DNA of 41,142 nt from a phage. Below the pieces are notes generated by a model. That model saw nothing but the letters and a program-made list of their open reading frames with translations. It did no database searches and was not told the DNA's origin. Positions 3,350 through 29,954 of the stretch are shown here, piece by piece (within the stretch, counting starts at the first letter, position 1; each line of letters opens with the position of its first letter). The stretch lies in the sequence record PZ019083.1. One strand, written 5' to 3'. The position numbers and the translations under genes were made by a program.

Positions 3350-4426
3350 ATGCTATTAACTTTAGCACCACAGGGTTTAACTATGAGCTTACTTACATCC
3401 CTAATCAGCCACCAGATATGGCTGCAACGAACCGCATCCGGCGAAGTGAAAGACCTCGCACCGTTCATTCAGGAAATGCGGGACGAAATCAAACGGCAGG
3501 TGCTGTTATTCGGTGACGACGGGCGAAGCACCGCGCGGCTGAATAAACTGTTACGCGACCTTGAAGAAGCGCTAACCGGACTTACCGGCGACTGGCAAAC
3601 AAAGCTGACAGAAGACCTCAAGGAGCTGGCGGCGTATGAGGCTGAGTGGAACGTAAAGACGCTGGCCACCAACGTAGATGCGGAATTTGTCACGCCTACC
3701 GCCGAACAGGTGTGGGCTGCCGCTGAGTTTCAACCCTTATCATTAAGCGACAAGCCTGTTGATTTCACTAAGCTGATGTCGGGATGGGGTGAAACCGAAG
3801 TAGCACGTCTCGTAACCGGCGTTAAGATGGGCTTTGTTCAGGGTAAGACAACACGGCAGATTGTTACAGAAGTAGTCGGTAAAGGTGGGCTGGCTGACGT
3901 ATCAGAGAAATATGCGGCTACAGTAATCCGCACCGCGCTGTCCCACGTATCCAACGAAGCCCGTAACGAGACGTACCGCCAGAACGACGACATCATCGAG
4001 AAGTACGAGTGGGTGTCGACGCTGGACAGCCGTACCAGTACGATTTGTAGGGCCAGAGACGGAATGACGTGGGAAATCGGTAAGGGGCCGATGCCGCCAG
4101 CACATCCGAATTGCCGGAGTACCACTGCACCAGTAATCAGTTCGGAGTTCGACTTCCTCGATAAGGGAGCAAAACGAGCAGCTAAGGGTGCGGACGGCGG
4201 TATGCAGGTAAGTGCAGACACCACCTATTATGAGTTCCTGAAACAACAACCGGCATGGTTTCAGGACCAGGCTCTAGGCCCTGTTCGCGGTAAGATTTTC
4301 CGTAACAGCGGTATATCGCCGGAAGAGTTTCGCGTAATATCTGTAGATGGTTTCGGGAATCCGCTCACGCTTAAGCAGATGGCGGAACTCGATAAACGTG
4401 TTGCTGATTATCTGAAAGGGGAATAA
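3350..4426 (+). CDS. head morphogenesis / minor head protein (Mu F or SPP1 gp7-like)
   Basis: 358 aa ORF after portal; C-terminal Cys/His-containing region; start could instead be ATG 3371. Confidence 0.55.
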   Translation: MLLTLAPQGLTMSLLTSLISHQIWLQRTASGEVKDLAPFIQEMRDEIKRQVLLFGDDGRSTARLNKLLRDLEEALTGLTGDWQTKLTEDLKELAAYEAEWNVKTLATNVDAEFVTPTAEQVWAAAEFQPLSLSDKPVDFTKLMSGWGETEVARLVTGVKMGFVQGKTTRQIVTEVVGKGGLADVSEKYAATVIRTALSHVSNEARNETYRQNDDIIEKYEWVSTLDSRTSTICRARDGMTWEIGKGPMPPAHPNCRSTTAPVISSEFDFLDKGAKRAAKGADGGMQVSADTTYYEFLKQQPAWFQDQALGPVRGKIFRNSGISPEEFRVISVDGFGNPLTLKQMAELDKRVADYLKGE

Positions 4427-4913: not shown

Positions 4914-4963
4914 GTGCCTGTGATTATTCCAGTTATTCCACTCAATTGTAAATGTTGGAATAA

Positions 4964-4977
4964 ACTATTCGAATAGT
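4964..4977. promoter_or_regulatory. 14-bp perfect palindrome ACTATTCGAATAGT abutting a TTGACT -35-like hexamer (4977-4982)
   Basis: Perfect dyad; the half-site ACTATTC recurs in promoters elsewhere in the window. Confidence 0.4.
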
Positions 4978-5024
4978 TGACTTTTCACTGAAAATATGAT
5001 AAGCTCCACCTGAGCTTGTGAAGT

Positions 5025-5171
5025 ATGAACAAGCGACCGCGGCGCGGGCAGGTAACGGAGCGGGACGTAAGTCCTGAGTGTAGTTACGCTGACGCGTTCG
5101 GAAGGGCCATACTCTATTGCTTGTGTAAAAAAGTAACGGGTTTACTGAGATTACGCCGTTTCTATGTTTAA
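5025..5171 (+). CDS. possible 48-aa basic Cys-containing mini-protein (or noncoding RNA)
   Basis: ATG-initiated ORF between promoter-like site and hairpin 5187-5206; weak RBS. Confidence 0.2.
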   Translation: MNKRPRRGQVTERDVSPECSYADAFGRAILYCLCKKVTGLLRLRRFYV

Positions 5172-5230
5172 ATGATAAGGACTAGCGCCCCGCTTTAAGG
5201 CGGGGCTTTACTTATCGAGAAAGGGGAAAC

Positions 5231-5617
5231 ATGAATCTTAAAGCAACTGTCGTAGCCGGAGCATGTTTCGTTGTCCTGGCCTACGCACACAGCATTTATC
5301 AGTATCGCAGCGGCTGGAACGAAGGCCGGGCGAATCTCGTTTCGCAGCAACAGCAGAAAGCACAGGCTGAGTTAGCGAAGAAAACACAACGGCAGCAGCA
5401 GGATGAATCAAAGGCCGCAGCCGCTGACAACGAAGGCAAGACGAAATCAGAGGTGATTACACGTGAAGTCGTTAAGTACATTAAAACGCCTGGTCGCAGC
5501 GTGTGCACTTTCGACGATGCTCGCGTCCTGCTCAAGTCCCGCGCTGTTGCCAACGCCAATTCCATCCCCGGATACGACAATGATGCAGCCGCCGTGCAAG
5601 TTGGCCCCGCCAAGTAG
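5231..5617 (+). CDS. i-spanin (Rz-like inner membrane spanin)
   Basis: N-terminal TM helix, Q/A/K-rich coiled-coil region, strong RBS AAAGGGGA; contains start of overlapped lipoprotein gene. Confidence 0.6.
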   Translation: MNLKATVVAGACFVVLAYAHSIYQYRSGWNEGRANLVSQQQQKAQAELAKKTQRQQQDESKAAAADNEGKTKSEVITREVVKYIKTPGRSVCTFDDARVLLKSRAVANANSIPGYDNDAAAVQVGPAK

Positions 5618-9931: not shown

Positions 9932-11098
9932 ATGGCTACAACTCCTTTTAAGGGCGTTAATACCGCGCAATTCTATGTGGCGGAGACTACCCCGGGCGTA
10001 ACCCCGGACAACCCTGTCTGGTCGCCGCTGCGTAACACTGGCGGCGTTCCGGCCATTACCCGCGACACGCTGACCTCCAACGAGCTGGACGGCAGCCGTG
10101 AAACTACGTCCATCCGCACAGGTAACAAGCAGGTTAGTGGGGAGTACGCTATTGAGCTTAGCTCGAAAAGTCAGGACGACTGGTTAGCCGGGGCTTTAGG
10201 TTCTACGTGGCAATCCGGTGTTTCTCTGTCAGGGCTATCTATTACCGTCGCACCGGCTGGTAAGACGTTTACCCGTGCTGATGGCAGCTTTATTACCGAC
10301 GGCGTTCAAGTGGGCGACCTGATCGCGTTCACCGACTTAACCGGCGATAACGCCAAACCGTTTATCGTAACCGAGGTAAGTGCGACTGTTGTCACCGGTG
10401 CTGGTATCCAACATACTCTGACCACTGAGACCGTAACTACCGCCGCTAAGACAGGTGACAAACTAGAAACGGGAAGCCAGTGTAAGACGTTCTCTATTCT
10501 TACCTGGTACAAAGGTCAGTGTGGCGGGACTGACGCGTACACGCTGACCAAAGGCGTGGAAGTTTCTGGTTTTACCATCGAACAGGCCGTAAACGCGATG
10601 GTAACCGGTAGTTTCCCGTTCATCGGGCGCAGCCAGGAGATTCTCACCACGCCCCCGACAGGTTCTGATTTCTCCTCGGTTACGTTTGGCGATGAGCCGT
10701 TCTCCTCGGTTGACGTTTCTGTGTTCGACGGTTCTACCCCGTTGCGTTGCGATAGCCTGACTATCACCAACGACAACAGCGCATCCGCGCAGTTCGAACT
10801 CGGCAACACTAACGTAGCGTTTGTGGAGCGTAGCCGTGCGGCTAACACCTTCTCCATCTCCGGCAAGCTGTATGACATGGCTATGATTCAGAAGTTTATC
10901 AACGAGCAGCAGGTAGAGATTAACTCTATTCTGGCGGGGGTAAATGGGGCTATGTCTTTCAGTTTGAAACGCGCAGAACTCACGGCGGTTACACCAGAAA
11001 TATCTGGTCCGGAATCAATCACTCAGTCCATTGAAGGCCAGGCTACCGGCAACCAGTACCAGTCGTCCATTATTATCCAGCGTATCACCTACGCATAA
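9932..11098 (+). CDS. major tail protein
   Basis: AAGAGG RBS then ATG 9932; 388 aa; followed by strong terminator. Confidence 0.6.
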   Translation: MATTPFKGVNTAQFYVAETTPGVTPDNPVWSPLRNTGGVPAITRDTLTSNELDGSRETTSIRTGNKQVSGEYAIELSSKSQDDWLAGALGSTWQSGVSLSGLSITVAPAGKTFTRADGSFITDGVQVGDLIAFTDLTGDNAKPFIVTEVSATVVTGAGIQHTLTTETVTTAAKTGDKLETGSQCKTFSILTWYKGQCGGTDAYTLTKGVEVSGFTIEQAVNAMVTGSFPFIGRSQEILTTPPTGSDFSSVTFGDEPFSSVDVSVFDGSTPLRCDSLTITNDNSASAQFELGNTNVAFVERSRAANTFSISGKLYDMAMIQKFINEQQVEINSILAGVNGAMSFSLKRAELTAVTPEISGPESITQSIEGQATGNQYQSSIIIQRITYA

Positions 11099-11102
11099 AA
11101 CT

Positions 11103-11126
11103 AAGGCCCCGAAAGGGGCCTTTTTC
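11103..11126. terminator. bidirectional intrinsic terminator
   Basis: AAGGCCCC-GAAA-GGGGCCTT flanked by A-run and T-run, between convergent operons. Confidence 0.6.
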
Positions 11127-11357
11127 TTACTCATCAATGTTACTCCTGTAGTCCCGTAACTTTTCCAGACTTTCAATTGCTTCCGCTAAGTCTGTTCCTG
11201 TGTCCTTGTGCCCGCGAAGGCCCAAGCACAATAGCTTCTTCAATGCGTGTTGCAACGCAGGGTCACGGATGTCGAAAGCACGGAGAACATCGTAAACGTC
11301 TACTGTCATGGTGCTGCCGTGTGTATTTGTCATTGTGCGGTTGTATTTTGAAGTCAT
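11127..11357 (-). CDS. hypothetical protein, DUF3310-like
   Basis: 76 aa; motif ALQHALKKLLCLGLRGHKDTGTDLAEAIESL resembles DUF3310 phage proteins (from memory); ATGA coupling to upstream gene. Confidence 0.4.
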   Translation of the reverse strand: MTSKYNRTMTNTHGSTMTVDVYDVLRAFDIRDPALQHALKKLLCLGLRGHKDTGTDLAEAIESLEKLRDYRSNIDE

Positions 11358-12484
11358 CCCAGCATCTCCGGTGAAATAGTTAAACGTGCGACCTCGCCGT
11401 ATTCGGCGCTATAAGTAATTACATTTGCACTACGGCCCGACATCCAACCGCCTCTGGATGCGTAGGCGTCTTTGGCCGCTAAGGTGCGGTGTTGCTCAAC
11501 AATCATGTTACGGCTTTCTACAATCTTTTGGTGGTGCAGGTGGCCTACGTGGGCGTAGCTATAAACGCTCTCGCCGAACGCTTTGCGGAACTTGGCGATC
11601 ATAACCGGTTCAATAGCGTCGAATCGTGCTTTATGCCCGTGGTGAAAGAACAACGTCGTTTTGCCGTGTTGCACCATCTTGTAAACGTCCGGCGACGTGT
11701 CGACGATCACTCGGCTGTCTTTTGAGTATAAAGTCGTGAACATTTCCGCCAACCACACAGACCCTACAGGGTCGTGATTTCCTTGCACGATAAGCAAGCG
11801 AACATTTTTGTGCTTAACGAGCGCCATATCAACAACACGGCGGACCATACGAATCATGTAACGTACAAGTTTCTGGTAGCGCGTATCTGCATCCAACACA
11901 TGGCGCGACTCAGGCGTAACGGCGTCCAGGCTATCGAAGTGCGCGAAGTCGCCCAGCAGGTTAATAACTCCAGTTCCCGCGTCTGGTGCTTTCTGAAACG
12001 CGGCATCAAACCACCGAGAAAACAGGTCTTCAGCAATCTTCATATCCCAGTCGTCGCCGCTCTCGTCGGCCCAGGCCAGCATGCCGAGATGGAAATCAGA
12101 TACCGTGTAAAGATTGAGTAGCTTGTCATCACGTTTGGCTCGAGTCGCTTTAACAGGGACAACCGGCGTAATCTCTGACTTCATGCCTTCAATTACGGCT
12201 TTCATCAACTCGACCTGACGTTCGGCGTCAGTATCGGTCTTAACCCATTGCAGTTTAGTGTTGCCAAACTCGTCCACTAGTGACGACGTTCCTTTAATCT
12301 TGTAGCCGTCTGGCACAAGGTGACTAACGTCACGTCCGTGGCCTACACCTTTCTTAGCCAGCTTCGCTTTACGGATACGAATAACGCGGTCCGAGATGCC
12401 GTATTTACGGGCGATGTCTACATTCTTCATCCCGGCGTTCAATTCTTCCTGTAACTGTTCGTCGGTTATTTTCTTATGGGCCAT
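11354..12484 (-). CDS. HTH-containing calcineurin-like metallophosphoesterase
   Basis: Motifs SDFHLG, GDFAHFD, GNHD, HHGH, GHLHH; N-terminal HTH-like segment; start at ATG 12484 (MAHKK) with GAGGAAG RBS. Confidence 0.6.
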   Translation of the reverse strand: MAHKKITDEQLQEELNAGMKNVDIARKYGISDRVIRIRKAKLAKKGVGHGRDVSHLVPDGYKIKGTSSLVDEFGNTKLQWVKTDTDAERQVELMKAVIEGMKSEITPVVPVKATRAKRDDKLLNLYTVSDFHLGMLAWADESGDDWDMKIAEDLFSRWFDAAFQKAPDAGTGVINLLGDFAHFDSLDAVTPESRHVLDADTRYQKLVRYMIRMVRRVVDMALVKHKNVRLLIVQGNHDPVGSVWLAEMFTTLYSKDSRVIVDTSPDVYKMVQHGKTTLFFHHGHKARFDAIEPVMIAKFRKAFGESVYSYAHVGHLHHQKIVESRNMIVEQHRTLAAKDAYASRGGWMSGRSANVITYSAEYGEVARLTISPEMLG

Positions 12485-12522
12485 GCTTACTTCCTCGTGT
12501 TTAGGATTTGTCTTATAGTAGC

Positions 12523-12714
12523 CTACTTCTCTTTCACGTTCGAGTTGCAAGCCCAGATTAAAATAAATACCCACGGCAGCAGAACCCAGCCAAGAAACAG
12601 GTTAGCCGTGAATATCGCTAACTTCGCTTTATGGTTACGGAAGTACGCAACCAGGAAAGGCGCGAAATAAGCGAGAAGTGCAAACAGAATCAAGGAAACT
12701 GGTAAACTGGACAT
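12523..12714 (-). CDS. superinfection-immunity-like small membrane protein (Imm_superinfect family-like)
   Basis: Two TM helices; motif YFAPFLVAYFRNHKAKLAIFTANLFLGWVLLPWVFILIWA; AAGGGG RBS before ATG 12714. Confidence 0.5.
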   Translation of the reverse strand: MSSLPVSLILFALLAYFAPFLVAYFRNHKAKLAIFTANLFLGWVLLPWVFILIWACNSNVKEK

Positions 12715-12744
12715 TTTAAACCCCTTCATTGTTGGTGTAAGTGA

Positions 12745-12773
12745 ATAGTACCCTATTATATTGGGGTGTGCAA
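12745..12773 (-). promoter_or_regulatory. sigma70-type promoter TTGCAC-17-TACTAT (class A) driving the antisense accessory operon
   Basis: Near-identical to promoters at 34294 and 35511. Confidence 0.55.
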
Positions 12774-12881
12774 GTAATGTGATAGAATAATTTTGCGCCT
12801 AGTGTCGCACACGAAAAGCGGGTGGTTCCCGTCTGGCGCATTTACCGTTAACCTGTAACCTCTTAACCAAAGGATTAAAGA

Positions 12882-13301
12882 ATGAAACTTTCTGATTTTT
12901 ATTTCGAAGAGAAAGCACTGGTAGGCAAGAAGATGCCTATTCTCCTGCCAAATGGCGAAGACTCAGGCGAGTGGCTTAACGTTGTAAGCCCCGATGCGGA
13001 TGCCGCCGTTAAAGCTGGGCGTGCGTTCATTATCGCGTACCGTCGCGGGTTGGCGCGTTTCGAAGAACTGGAAAAAGCCGCCAAAGAATCAGGCGACTAT
13101 ACTGAATATAACCTGGCTATTAACGAACTGGCGGAAGACCTCAACCGGCAACTCGCGGCAGAAGTTGTAAACGGCTGGAGCTTTGACGACGAGCCTTTCT
13201 CTAAGGAAGCATTTAACAAATTGCTCGACCAGTTCAAAGGGCTTGGAACCCAGGTGGCGGCGTTCCATAACGCTGAACGTAAAGCATTACAGGAAAAGTA
13301 G
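12882..13301 (+). CDS. tail assembly chaperone (G-like)
   Basis: 139 aa ORF immediately upstream of tape measure gene, followed by a -1 frame ORF. Confidence 0.5.
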   Translation: MKLSDFYFEEKALVGKKMPILLPNGEDSGEWLNVVSPDADAAVKAGRAFIIAYRRGLARFEELEKAAKESGDYTEYNLAINELAEDLNRQLAAEVVNGWSFDDEPFSKEAFNKLLDQFKGLGTQVAAFHNAERKALQEK

Positions 13302-13666
13302 ACGCGCTGTACAGGTTCGCCACCTACGAGTTTGTGGATAAGCATAAAATCAGAGAGTTTGATTCTATAGCTGACGGTCACGAACAGGCGCTTATCGCGA
13401 TGGGTGTAATCGATAAGAAAAAACGTGCAGCGCGACGGGGTGGGCCAGAATGCCCGCCCCTTTTTATATCCACCTTTGAAACGTACTGTGGCATTAAGTT
13501 TACGCGACACGTGCGCGAGGACGCTGTAGTATTGTTTGCAAGAGAATCCGTTACGTGGCAAGACCTGAAATCCTATCTCGATGTTACGCAAAAACAGCTT
13601 AGCCTGTTCGAGATAGACATTATCATGGGCTTAGAAGCAATCTTTGAAGGTAGAAATCATGGCTGA
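13283..13666 (+). CDS. -1 frame extension of tail assembly chaperone (GT-like frameshift product C-terminal part)
   Basis: Frame -1 open from 13283; shifty A_AAG codon directly before TAG stop of upstream ORF; ends 8 nt inside tape measure gene. Confidence 0.4.
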   Translation, partial: SITGKVDALYRFATYEFVDKHKIREFDSIADGHEQALIAMGVIDKKKRAARRGGPECPPLFISTFETYCGIKFTRHVREDAVVLFARESVTWQDLKSYLDVTQKQLSLFEIDIIMGLEAIFEGRNHG

Positions 13667-22855: not shown

Positions 22856-22993
22856 CTACTCTTCTGCTAACTTCTCCAGTACAAACGCCAGTTGCGCATT
22901 AGCGGCGTCTCTTTGCTGCCGTAGTCGTAGAACCTCTTCTTCGAGTTCCTTGATACGTTTTTGCAATGCTGGAATCGGCGCTACGATGTTCAT
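22856..22993 (-). CDS. small coiled-coil protein (45 aa)
   Basis: ATGA start-stop overlap with HNH gene; translation MNIVAPIPALQKRIKELEEEVLRLRQQRDAANAQLAFVLEKLAEE. Confidence 0.3.
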   Translation of the reverse strand: MNIVAPIPALQKRIKELEEEVLRLRQQRDAANAQLAFVLEKLAEE

Positions 22994-23304
22994 GCGGTTT
23001 CTCCGTGGTTTTCATGAAATCCGTAAGCAGCTTCCGCGGCTTTACGCGCGGCAACAGCTTCGTTAAAATCATCAAACCTTCCAATAGTTTTTGTCTTTCT
23101 AAATTTGGTTATCTGCACCAACCACTTGCACCGCTCTTTGTCAAATGACACCCCTACCGCCCCAGACCTATTACGCCCAGTAGCCAGCCTGTTCATAGCG
23201 TTTTCTTGCTTAGTAACTACTCTTAAATTTGCGAGCCTGTTATCCGCGCGATTATGATTCTGGTGGTCTATTTCCATGCCGTCTGGTATAGGGCCATTGA
23301 ACAT
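22990..23304 (-). CDS. HNH endonuclease with AP2-like DNA-binding domain; N-terminal part of the domain lies upstream behind in-frame stops
   Basis: Motif EIDHQNHNRADNRLANLR (HNH) then GVSFDKERCKWLVQ...GRFDDFNEAVAARKAAE (AP2-like). Confidence 0.55.
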   Translation of the reverse strand: MFNGPIPDGMEIDHQNHNRADNRLANLRVVTKQENAMNRLATGRNRSGAVGVSFDKERCKWLVQITKFRKTKTIGRFDDFNEAVAARKAAEAAYGFHENHGETA

Positions 23305-28712: not shown

Positions 28713-29954
28713 TTATTCTAAATCTTCTCCACTAACCTGATTCCACTCAGGCCGTTTGTCGTCTGCCGTTGCAACGCATGGCGCTCCCGGCTTACGGGTA
28801 ATGAAGTCTTTCAGTTCTTCTTCCGGTATTACTTTAACAGCTTCGGTCGGTGTCATTAGCACTTCTTTAGTTAGCTTGTCGCCGTAGAGTTCTGTTACTT
28901 TCTCCGCGTCTTTCCACGCACGATTACTGGGACGGCCTTCAACCAGTTTGTACCCAGGCACTTTCTTACCTGAATGCAAAGCGGCGGCCATCGCTTTTTC
29001 AACCTTGTCGATGTGCTGGCGCAACAGCGGCAACTTCTCATACTCAGCTACGAGTTGCTCAGGCGTAAGTTCCAGCGCAAAGTCGTCCTCCAGTTCTTCC
29101 GCCAGTACCGCGTTAACGGTTTTTGTACGCGCGGCGCACTGTTCTGAGAACCGACACCACTGACAACCATCTGCAGAAGGCTTGAAGTCCGACGCTTTCA
29201 GGTTCTTCTTGCCGCGGGAATAAGCATCAAGAGCCAACAGCGCGCGTTTATGTGCGAACTTAGCGAACAGTTCCAGACCTTCAACCGAGATGTCCCACTC
29301 CGACGCACCGCCAGCATACGGCTGGAAGATTACCAGACGAACGGTTGTTATGTTATAACGTCTCTTGAGTCGGCGATAAACACCGAGAGCGTAAAGCATA
29401 AGCTGCTTGTTTTCTTTCGCTTCGACGCGATGTCGCCCGGTTTTAAGGTCCCCAATAATGAGCATGTGCTCGTCGGTGTTAGCCAGTTCCTGAACGGCAA
29501 CAAGGTCAGCGGTCCCGAACGTCTCAACGCCTTCATACCCAGGATGCAATACCTCAGTGAGATTGACGCGCATTTCCAGCTTGGCGTAAGTCGCAACGTC
29601 GATAATCGCTTTGCAGTAGTCGGTATACTTGCGCACCTGCTCAATCATGTCAGCCGTAATCAGTACCGCGCCTTTCACCGGGCTGATTAGAGCCTTAATC
29701 TGACCTTTGCCCTCATCCAACACGTAAGCACCAACTTCACGCTCTAATGGAAACGCAGTGCCTTTGATGTACTGGTTAAGGTGCATTTCCGCTATGGTGT
29801 GCATAGTCGTACCTAATACTGCGGCCTTACCGGACGTGTTAGGAATATCTTTTTCACAGGCCAGTGATGCAGCACAGCTTAGCCACTTTTTAGCGCCAGA
29901 CGGCGACAGCAGGGCGTGCACATCGTTATTGCCGCCGCGTTCTTTTAAAATCAT
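28713..29954 (-). CDS. Cas4-like PD-(D/E)XK exonuclease (DUF2800-like) with C-terminal Cys cluster
   Basis: N-terminal LSPSGAKKWLSC, C-terminal CQWCRFSEQC; ATG 29954 with GGGAGA RBS and ATGA coupling. Confidence 0.55.
   Translation of the reverse strand: MILKERGGNNDVHALLSPSGAKKWLSCAASLACEKDIPNTSGKAAVLGTTMHTIAEMHLNQYIKGTAFPLEREVGAYVLDEGKGQIKALISPVKGAVLITADMIEQVRKYTDYCKAIIDVATYAKLEMRVNLTEVLHPGYEGVETFGTADLVAVQELANTDEHMLIIGDLKTGRHRVEAKENKQLMLYALGVYRRLKRRYNITTVRLVIFQPYAGGASEWDISVEGLELFAKFAHKRALLALDAYSRGKKNLKASDFKPSADGCQWCRFSEQCAARTKTVNAVLAEELEDDFALELTPEQLVAEYEKLPLLRQHIDKVEKAMAAALHSGKKVPGYKLVEGRPSNRAWKDAEKVTELYGDKLTKEVLMTPTEAVKVIPEEELKDFITRKPGAPCVATADDKRPEWNQVSGEDLE

Follow-up and report, generated by a model that had tools for sequence, protein, structure and literature searches.

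An antisense island in the tail module of a Kagunavirus-type genome: a widespread HTH-metallophosphoesterase gene, likely a core between two exchange slots

Introduction

Exclusion genes that stand in reverse orientation beside tail genes are a known theme in phage genomes, an example being cor of phage T1. Here we analyze an antisense island of three genes at positions 11127-12773 of sequence record PZ019083.1, a stretch of phage DNA of 41,142 nucleotides (nt) that is called the window in the following. The island encodes a small membrane protein of the Imm_superinfect family (Imm, 63 residues), a protein of 376 residues in which a helix-turn-helix (HTH) segment precedes a metallophosphoesterase (MPE) domain, and a protein of 76 residues. 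The namesake of the first protein, Imm of phage T4, is an inner-membrane protein that acts against DNA entry of superinfecting phages. T1 cor (29623-29850, minus strand) resembles the island in being a small opposite-strand gene for an envelope-targeted protein, located by tail genes and a bidirectional terminator, but it belongs to another protein family and lies at the end of the tail module, not between the tail tube and chaperone genes. For the second protein the closest described enzymes are Mre11/SbcD, PolD DP1 and an MPE of Pseudomonas putida, a stand-alone single-stranded DNA endonuclease without capping domain, which needs His81 and His113 to cleave DNA, whereas it hydrolyses bis(p-nitrophenyl) phosphate without them (PMC7826289). 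The third protein can be compared with small phage proteins of the SaV-like, DUF3310 and T7 gp1.7 type. The Imm annotation is already found in genome papers (PMC9825357, PMC5582158), and GenBank records already annotate the island as a whole, as ORF18-21 in phage K1G and as Bas74_0021-0023 in phage Bas74, where the names 'superinfection immunity protein' and 'DNA repair exonuclease' are used. Literature searches for functional work on the island genes in Guernseyvirinae and Drexlerviridae gave genome descriptions only.

Do the three genes form one system? A first-pass annotation of the window had suggested so and described a moron-type cassette of undescribed function. From the comparison with related loci we consider another arrangement likely, namely a core gene for a nuclease-like MPE that is flanked by two exchange slots and transcribed independently, the three genes not constituting a single system. 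Slot 1 would be a position at which genes for small proteins targeted to the envelope are exchanged, here that of Imm; the middle gene would be the core HTH-fused MPE, with an active site and fold closest to Mre11/SbcD and PolD DP1; slot 3 would be a second exchange site, here occupied by the 76-residue protein, whose fold weakly resembles the SaV/DUF3310 type; and the leftward operon would be transcribed from a conserved sigma-70-like promoter and end at a bidirectional terminator.

Position and Distribution of the Island Genes

Positions 10900-13100 of the window were compared by megablast with a database of 50,697 phage records, of which 295 matched. The closest were Escherichia phage ZCEC5 (91.4%) and Bas74 (90.9%), with K1G as a further close match; ZCEC5 and K1G are classified as Kagunavirus within the Guernseyvirinae. 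These matches identify the window as a Kagunavirus genome that is nearly complete, with a rightward module, from the terminase through the tail genes, and a leftward replication module with helicase, family A polymerase, a gp2.5-like single-stranded DNA-binding protein (SSB), an exonuclease of family phrog_69 and a helicase-primase. Between the gene for the 390-residue tail tube protein and the tail assembly chaperone gene lie three co-oriented minus-strand open reading frames (ORFs), and the antisense block that the first-pass annotation had placed within the tail module is thus real. The islands of K1G (gp20-gp23), Bas74, SETP3 and ZCEC5 agree with it in position and orientation, and their products are 97-98% (Imm) and 95-98% (MPE) identical to those of the window. 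Bas74, a member of the BASEL collection, has exactly the same three genes and offers a convenient starting point. In contrast, K1G carries genes for a PNKP-type phosphatase and a deoxynucleoside monophosphate (dNMP) kinase in place of the 76-residue protein gene, ZCEC5 has an additional ORF of 58 codons, Jersey-like phages add HNH and Ant genes, and in some relatives Imm is replaced by unrelated signal-peptide proteins or proteins with a single transmembrane segment. In this well-sampled subfamily of phages the island is thus a standard feature, known and annotated before, and not a new three-part system.

The gene at the center of the island has by far the widest distribution. MPE is encoded in 2,036 of the 50,697 phage records, about 4% of the collection, and in every examined Guernseyvirinae locus that retains the flanking tail genes it stands at the same position. 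For a closer view 72 IMG/VR loci encoding MPE relatives were fetched and the neighboring genes typed. Outside the Guernseyvirinae the surroundings change. In T1 the protein is gp16 (40822-41955), whose gene follows dam and small ORFs and precedes an HNH gene and the lysis cassette, and the same arrangement is found in Hanrivervirus, Kyungwonvirus and Changchunvirus. Dhillonvirus has the gene between endolysin and TerS. In Jedunavirus it follows the primase gene, with those of the terminase close by, and in a Vibrio phage it comes after the SSB gene. In none of the loci examined from T1, these five genera and the Vibrio phage does an Imm gene stand beside MPE. An obligate pair of MPE and the 76-residue protein was also considered and rejected, as the genes downstream of MPE are unrelated in Dhillonvirus, Changchunvirus and the Vibrio phage. 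With 2,036 records, T1 included, the HTH-MPE is among the more widespread phage enzymes without experimental function.

The idea of a single system, in which the three genes together provide superinfection exclusion or counter-defence and the MPE breaks down a second messenger of nucleotide type, for instance a cyclic oligonucleotide, has several observations in its favor: the block carries promoter and terminator signals of its own, its first gene belongs to the Imm family, Rv0805, a cyclic-nucleotide phosphodiesterase of class III, appears in the fold comparison of MPE (E 1e-7), and the ends of the operon vary among relatives. Nevertheless, it appears improbable. The three genes are distributed differently, with 363 records for Imm, almost all of them with Guernseyvirinae as hosts, 2,036 for MPE and 774 for the 76-residue protein, and for this reason the block is not regarded as one system. 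The MPE core usually occurs without Imm and beside replication, lysis or terminase genes, it carries a predicted DNA-binding HTH, and the GDxxH form of its motif II is shared with the DNA-cleaving P. putida MPE. Moreover, none of the three proteins matches any PADLOC family at E ≤0.1 or any NCBIfam model, and the base composition does not deviate: the fraction of G and C in the MPE gene (0.51-0.52) equals that of the flanks, and only the stretch of Imm and the promoter is lower (0.43-0.44). Moron-like presence and replacement among close relatives, as suggested earlier, is indeed seen at slots 1 and 3; it is not seen for MPE, which is found in every related locus examined and largely fits what had been named as the alternative, an ordinary repair nuclease (phrog_704) conserved at this position.

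The HTH-Metallophosphoesterase

MPE matches phrog_704, 'DNA repair exonuclease', with an E value of 2e-162. Its scores against the Pfam models Metallophos (22.3 bits versus 27) and Metallophos_2 (17.1 versus 21.5) are below gathering, and it is placed in the metallophosphoesterase superfamily despite this because of its fold and motifs. The five-motif set DxH, GDxx(D/H), GNH(D/E), H and GHxH is complete, in the form of DFH (residues 130-132), GDFAH, GNHD (235-238), HHGH (281-284) and GHLH (314-317). Four of the motifs had been read correctly in the first-pass annotation; the supposed GDxxD is GDFAH and thus of the GDxxH form. Among 73 homologues of 32-50% identity the residues D130, H132, G178, D179, N236, H237, H282, G314 and H317 are invariant, and H182 (in at least 90% of the sequences), D184, D238, H284 and H315 are nearly so. 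Compared with 1.84 billion cluster representatives, the protein has 4,529 relatives at E ≤1e-3 (clusters of 50% identity), most of which are 370-420 residues long and therefore retain the full-length architecture.

A structure prediction with AlphaFold2 (AF2) gave a model with a mean confidence (predicted local distance difference test, pLDDT) of 92, consisting of an N-terminal three-helix bundle (residues 8-44), a β-hairpin with a helix (61-103) and the MPE core (119-376), and the fusion of HTH and metallophosphoesterase, proposed earlier from the sequence, is seen in this model. The N-terminal segment (about residues 8-44) resembles the HTH of LuxR/GerE-type proteins, with weak GerE/FixJ matches (E 0.016-0.026) below the curated cut-offs, and there is a short match to phrog_836, 'late transcriptional activator' (E 7e-4). 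Could the protein mainly bind DNA in order to regulate other genes, such as those for late functions or packaging, while the phosphoesterase domain serves as a sensor or is vestigial? These HTH matches would be in line with such a function, some phage records name the homologue 'transcriptional regulator', and the terminase genes follow the MPE gene directly in Dhillonvirus and are close to it in Jedunavirus. Yet every HTH match stays below the curated cut-offs, and the seven metal ligands and the catalytic histidine are invariant across homologues of only 32-50% identity, which argues for a working MPE active site; a mainly regulatory role is accordingly hardly to be expected. In these genera the proximity to terminase genes (Dhillonvirus mckay, L007 3486-5506; Jedunavirus IME346, L009 3492-6355) points to a possible connection with DNA packaging.

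What would the substrate be? The assignment to the binuclear metallophosphoesterase fold is secure, and the modelled fold suggests a substrate class. In a Foldseek comparison of the model with the PDB, Mre11 ranked first (E 7.8e-9), followed by PolD DP1 (8e-8), Rv0805 (1e-7) and purple acid phosphatase (3e-7); the matches to Mre11 and PolD DP1 have 12-15% identity and template modelling (TM) scores of 0.40-0.46 (0.41-0.46 for Mre11). With Mre11/SbcD and PolD DP1 the phage protein shares the five motifs, a motif I of DxHLG type and the histidines in motifs II and III, whereas it is without evident capping or OB domain and has the HTH and β-hairpin module as an extra N-terminal part. The P. putida MPE likewise acts without capping domain, and its two histidines that are needed for DNA cleavage correspond to H182 (GDxxH) and H237 (GNH) of the phage protein, which differs from it in the added HTH and in lying outside any Lhr-Core/Exo/ligase operon. 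Searches of PDB sequences with the single protein and with a profile found only the weak GerE/FixJ HTH matches and sub-threshold matches to Mre11/SbcD, and no direct match to the P. putida protein. In a public record, a homologue of 94% identity is named after the P. putida enzyme. On this basis the HTH-MPE would presumably act as a DNA phosphodiesterase dependent on Mn2+, with DNA ends or secondary structures as its targets while the phage genome is replicated, recombined or packaged.

Slot 1: Imm and Its Replacements

The small membrane protein reaches 46.9 bits with Pfam PF14373 Imm_superinfect (cut-off 27.9, E 2.5e-12), where the alignment spans positions 2-42 of a profile of 42, and matches phrog_1039, 'immunity to superinfection', with E 3.4e-22. 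A basic loop (RNHKAK) separates two hydrophobic segments, and Kyte-Doolittle averages over 19 residues reach at least 1.6 in two blocks, one from about residue 1 and one up to about residue 58. The profile search and the hydropathy thus bear out the initial reading as a two-segment transmembrane protein of the Imm_superinfect family, for which the lack of an Imm-family match had been named as the adverse outcome. By tblastn the similarity extends to imm of T4-like Proteus phages (49-54% identity over residues 26-60). An alternative ATG upstream, at 12729, would give a protein of 68 residues; the ATG at 12714 is preceded by AAGGGG at a distance of 6 nt, and the K1G annotation uses the 63-residue form. 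Like T4 Imm, the protein is small, has two hydrophobic segments and is predicted to lie in the inner membrane, and it scores above the Pfam gathering value, but it is carried by a siphovirus, whose injection apparatus differs from that of T4, and its exclusion activity is putative. By analogy with T4, Imm would sit in the inner membrane and keep the DNA of later phages from entering the infected cell.

Slot 1 is bounded by a conserved promoter region of about 170 nt on one side and a conserved leader before the MPE start on the other, and the ORFs between these flanks are unrelated. Most familiar is Imm itself, either at 94-98% identity or, in some loci, as an allele of 70-73% identity. Other loci have a 108-residue signal-peptide protein of phrog_14165, a 97-residue protein with a single transmembrane segment or, in one Jersey-like locus, a different signal-peptide protein of 107 residues. 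Such replacements at slot 1 were seen in L014, L018, L025, L028, L034, L035, L041, L045 and L065 (at about 3606-3936 in most), in L027 (about 3669-3962) and in L048 (3596-3919). Every type of slot 1 protein is predicted to be envelope-targeted, and the slot therefore fits exclusion-type proteins, so that it may be regarded as an exchangeable cassette for exclusion-type envelope proteins. Conserved flanks around swappable envelope proteins constitute a natural panel for the specificity of superinfection exclusion in siphoviruses.

The slot 1 allele tends to go with the type of the genes next to it. Among the 39 Kagunavirus-type loci, defined as those with an MPE at least 92% identical, it follows the class of the adjacent chaperone/tape-measure allele in 36. 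Class A comprises 18 loci with the high-identity Imm and 2 with the mid-identity Imm, class B 8 with the mid-identity and 1 with the high-identity form, and class C has the 108-residue protein in 9 of 9; in one more locus the 97-residue protein is found together with its own chaperone type. The slot 3 cargo, in contrast, is spread over classes A, B and C (phosphatase-kinase versus 76-residue protein 7/13, 5/4 and 5/4). The association could reflect an exclusion protein matched to the injection apparatus. It could equally stem from the short recombination homology of about 170 nt on this side, as compared with the 1.1 kb of the MPE gene on the other. Since many of the loci derive from one metagenome and thus lack independence, the association is a lead only. 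Two more far-reaching readings, one in which the HTH-MPE is a partner-independent, sequence-targeted nuclease with its own role and one in which slot 1 houses an exclusion family matched to the phage's own tape-measure or injection type, are rather unlikely. If the first were true, the HTH-MPE might process concatemers or packaging sites or attack host or competitor DNA, unlike generic Mre11-like repair.

Slot 3: The 76-Residue Protein and a Phosphatase-Kinase Pair

The 76-residue protein belongs to phrog_2452, an unnamed family (E 5.7e-35), and its AF2 model (pLDDT 88) consists of a β-hairpin and three helices. The initial label 'DUF3310-like' does not hold at the level of sequence models, as the protein and 19 homologues gave zero Pfam matches up to E 10, PF11753 (DUF3310) included, and precomputed Pfam domains are absent from all homologues. 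It survives as a weak and distant resemblance of fold: in a Foldseek comparison with BFVD the model matched a SaV-like protein (E 2.6e-3, TM score 0.59) and the DUF3310 protein of phage P60 (E 3.3e-3, TM score 0.70), and the SaV-like, DUF3310 and 'nucleotide kinase' matches together range from E 2.6e-3 to 3e-2 with TM scores of 0.6-0.7, while 27 better matches are unnamed or carry unrelated names. With proteins of the SaV-like, DUF3310 and T7 gp1.7 type it thus has in common a weak fold match and the nature of a small phage protein that is also a domain of longer proteins; compared with the 'nucleotide kinase' entries it is much shorter, and its closest structural relatives are unnamed. The ORF was also considered as a remnant of the K1G ATPase on account of PHROG profile coordinates. 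This was rejected, as the homologues are free-standing proteins of 61-127 residues and the K1G kinase sequence is unrelated.

Slot 3 of the 39 Kagunavirus-type loci holds either the 76-residue protein gene or a pair of genes for a HAD phosphatase of PNKP type (PF25109, 72 bits) and a P-loop dNMP kinase (phrog_139); both together and neither of the two were each found in 0 of 39. The pair was seen in L002 (3228-4267) and 16 IMG/VR loci. This exclusivity may indicate functional replacement or merely alternative cargo. The reciprocal replacement, taken together with the faint gp1.7-type resemblance, hints at related roles of the 76-residue protein and the phosphatase-kinase pair in nucleotide metabolism. 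Some loci add HNH endonuclease genes, Ant or small ORFs beside the slot 3 cargo, and HNH genes (phrog_99, phrog_953) are inserted at varied points of the island (L012 725-1213 and 1501-1971; L011 807-1439; L005 4171-4671). Some of the variation in cargo is probably due to insertions of homing type.

The pair directly after MPE in the K1G-type relatives also brings to mind nucleic-acid end healing in the manner of T4 Pnkp or bacterial Pnkp (kinase, MPE phosphatase and ligase), with MPE and the slot 3 genes as a module for repairing tRNA or DNA cut by nucleases of the host. Two enzymes would fit, the P. putida MPE, which leaves mixed 3'-phosphate and 3'-hydroxyl ends (PMC7826289), and Clostridium thermocellum Pnkp, whose MPE domain is reported to serve as a 2',3'-cyclic phosphodiesterase (PMC2190708). 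We give this explanation little credence. The kinase belongs to the dNMP-kinase family and therefore points to nucleotide metabolism, the island is without ligase, the window has neither phosphatase nor kinase, and most of the MPE phages examined have neither of them adjacent. In T1, furthermore, pnk (4948-5478) is about 35 kb away from the MPE gene, a separation that rules out a general linkage of MPE and polynucleotide kinase.

Transcription Signals and Weighing of the Evidence

The genes of the block are less tightly coupled than had been thought. The stop codon of MPE and the start of the 76-residue protein gene overlap as ATGA, whereas the stop of Imm and the start of MPE are 38 nt apart and MPE has a separate ribosome-binding site (GAGGAAG), so that ATGA coupling throughout, as first claimed, applies to one of the two junctions. 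Upstream of Imm two overlapping leftward candidates for a sigma-70-like promoter are found. TTGCAC-17-TACTAT (12773-12745) agrees with the consensus at 7 of 12 positions (3/6 and 4/6) and lies below the threshold of the promoter scan, whereas ATCACA-17-TATAAT (12783-12755) agrees at 10 of 12. In Kagunavirus and Jersey-like relatives both hexamers of the former site are kept, the first as TTGCAC or, in two relatives, TTGCGC and the second as TACTAT or, in one, TATTAT, while the ATCACA hexamer varies. The promoter originally proposed here is accordingly present at the stated place and conserved, but with 7 of 12 positions it is not near-consensus.

At the other end a hairpin, AAGGCCCC-GAAA-GGGGCCTT, with a stem of 8 base pairs (6 of them G-C), a loop of 4 nt and a T-run on each strand, scores as a terminator on both strands. 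A match of this hairpin to the Rfam family Histone3 (18.5 bits, E 0.1) was dismissed as chance. The terminator itself is as first described, yet it does not bracket the operon, being located at its 3' end only. In the opposite direction a predicted promoter with extended -10 element stands back-to-back with the leftward promoter. It scores 8 of 12, hence was not listed by the promoter scan, and the complement of its -10 hexamer TAGAAT is invariant in both alignments of relatives. As the terminator lies upstream, such a rightward promoter would be needed to restart transcription of the tail genes. The predicted start sites are at about 12738 for leftward and about 12795 for rightward transcription. 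The promoter-like sites and the terminator-like hairpin of the leftward block are present and conserved in relatives, and because of the compact divergent promoter region and the bidirectional terminator the leftward block appears to be a transcription unit independent of the rightward structural operon.

Several points weigh against a nuclease-like core between exclusion and cargo slots. The Foldseek ranking of the model fails to separate nucleases from Rv0805 or the purple acid phosphatases. A Rad50/SbcC-like (SMC-like) partner was not found among the ten ORFs of the replication module that were scanned, and neither an Mre11-type capping domain nor an extra C-terminal domain is evident in the MPE model. 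Besides, the phage encodes a separate recombination exonuclease (phrog_69) together with an annealing protein of gp2.5 type, which leaves the need for a second nuclease unexplained. Exclusion by Imm-family proteins in siphoviruses is presumed by analogy with T4. In a Kagunavirus transcriptome with coarse time classes, the Imm homologue, which adjoins the chaperone gene, is in the last-peaking class (PMC12645636), which fits poorly with a simple 'early' model. Finally, experiments on any of the three proteins were not found in the papers searched. With these points taken into account, the core gene with two exchange slots is still the arrangement that we consider likely.

Features of the Island and Its Surroundings

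The coordinates of the features are collected in Table 1.

Table 1. Features of the island and of neighboring regions, in window coordinates.
Feature	Position	Strand	Basis or remark
Tail tube gene, 390 residues	9926-11098	+	Left flank of island
Bidirectional intrinsic terminator	11103-11122	both	Convergent junction of tail tube gene (+) and leftward operon (-)
Slot 3 cargo, 76-residue phrog_2452 protein	11127-11357	-	PHROG match, AF2 model
Core gene, 376-residue HTH-MPE	11354-12484	-	phrog_704, motifs, AF2 model
Slot 1 cargo, 63-residue Imm_superinfect protein with two transmembrane segments	12523-12714	-	Pfam PF14373, phrog_1039, hydropathy
Leftward promoter region, two overlapping sigma-70-like candidates	12745-12783	-	Promoter scan and conservation
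Predicted rightward extended -10 promoter, TTGGGG-16-TGaTAGAAT	12761-12788	+	Read from sequence
int-alpA-like structured RNA	12792-12856	+	Rfam RF02996 and covariation; flanks island, outside leftward operon
Tail assembly chaperone gene	12882-13301	+	Right flank of island
Second chaperone ORF	13334-13666		Contains terminator-like hairpin
Terminator-like hairpin	13437-13460	+	Strong; 9 pairs, 8 of them G-C, then TTTTT; inside second chaperone ORF
HNH gene in replication region	22990-23304	-	Side observation

Next to the island, between the divergent promoters and the chaperone gene, lies a structured RNA element resembling int-alpA. It matches Rfam RF02996 over the full length (1-71 of 71) with 31.5 bits (gathering 35.8, E 3.5e-5) and occurs as a single copy in the window. 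The element consists of an outer stem and two hairpins. Among 14 distinct variants from related loci the pairing is kept in 93.9% of cells, as compared with 35-48% when the partners are slid, and changes on both sides are found in 5 of 14 pairs, three of them in the second hairpin of 4 base pairs. The gathering score of RF02996 was reached by 0 of 12 related loci. Folding of the intergenic leader as a single sequence was uninformative (z = 0.29), and the structure emerged through comparison and Rfam only. As the element begins where the predicted rightward promoter would initiate, the chaperone/tape-measure operon would have it as its 5' leader. It was also seen in the loci L002, L005, L014, L015, L042-L050, L066, L073, L075 and L080. 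In K1G, at the locus that corresponds to the second chaperone ORF with its terminator-like hairpin, the chaperone is annotated as a joined product of two pieces.

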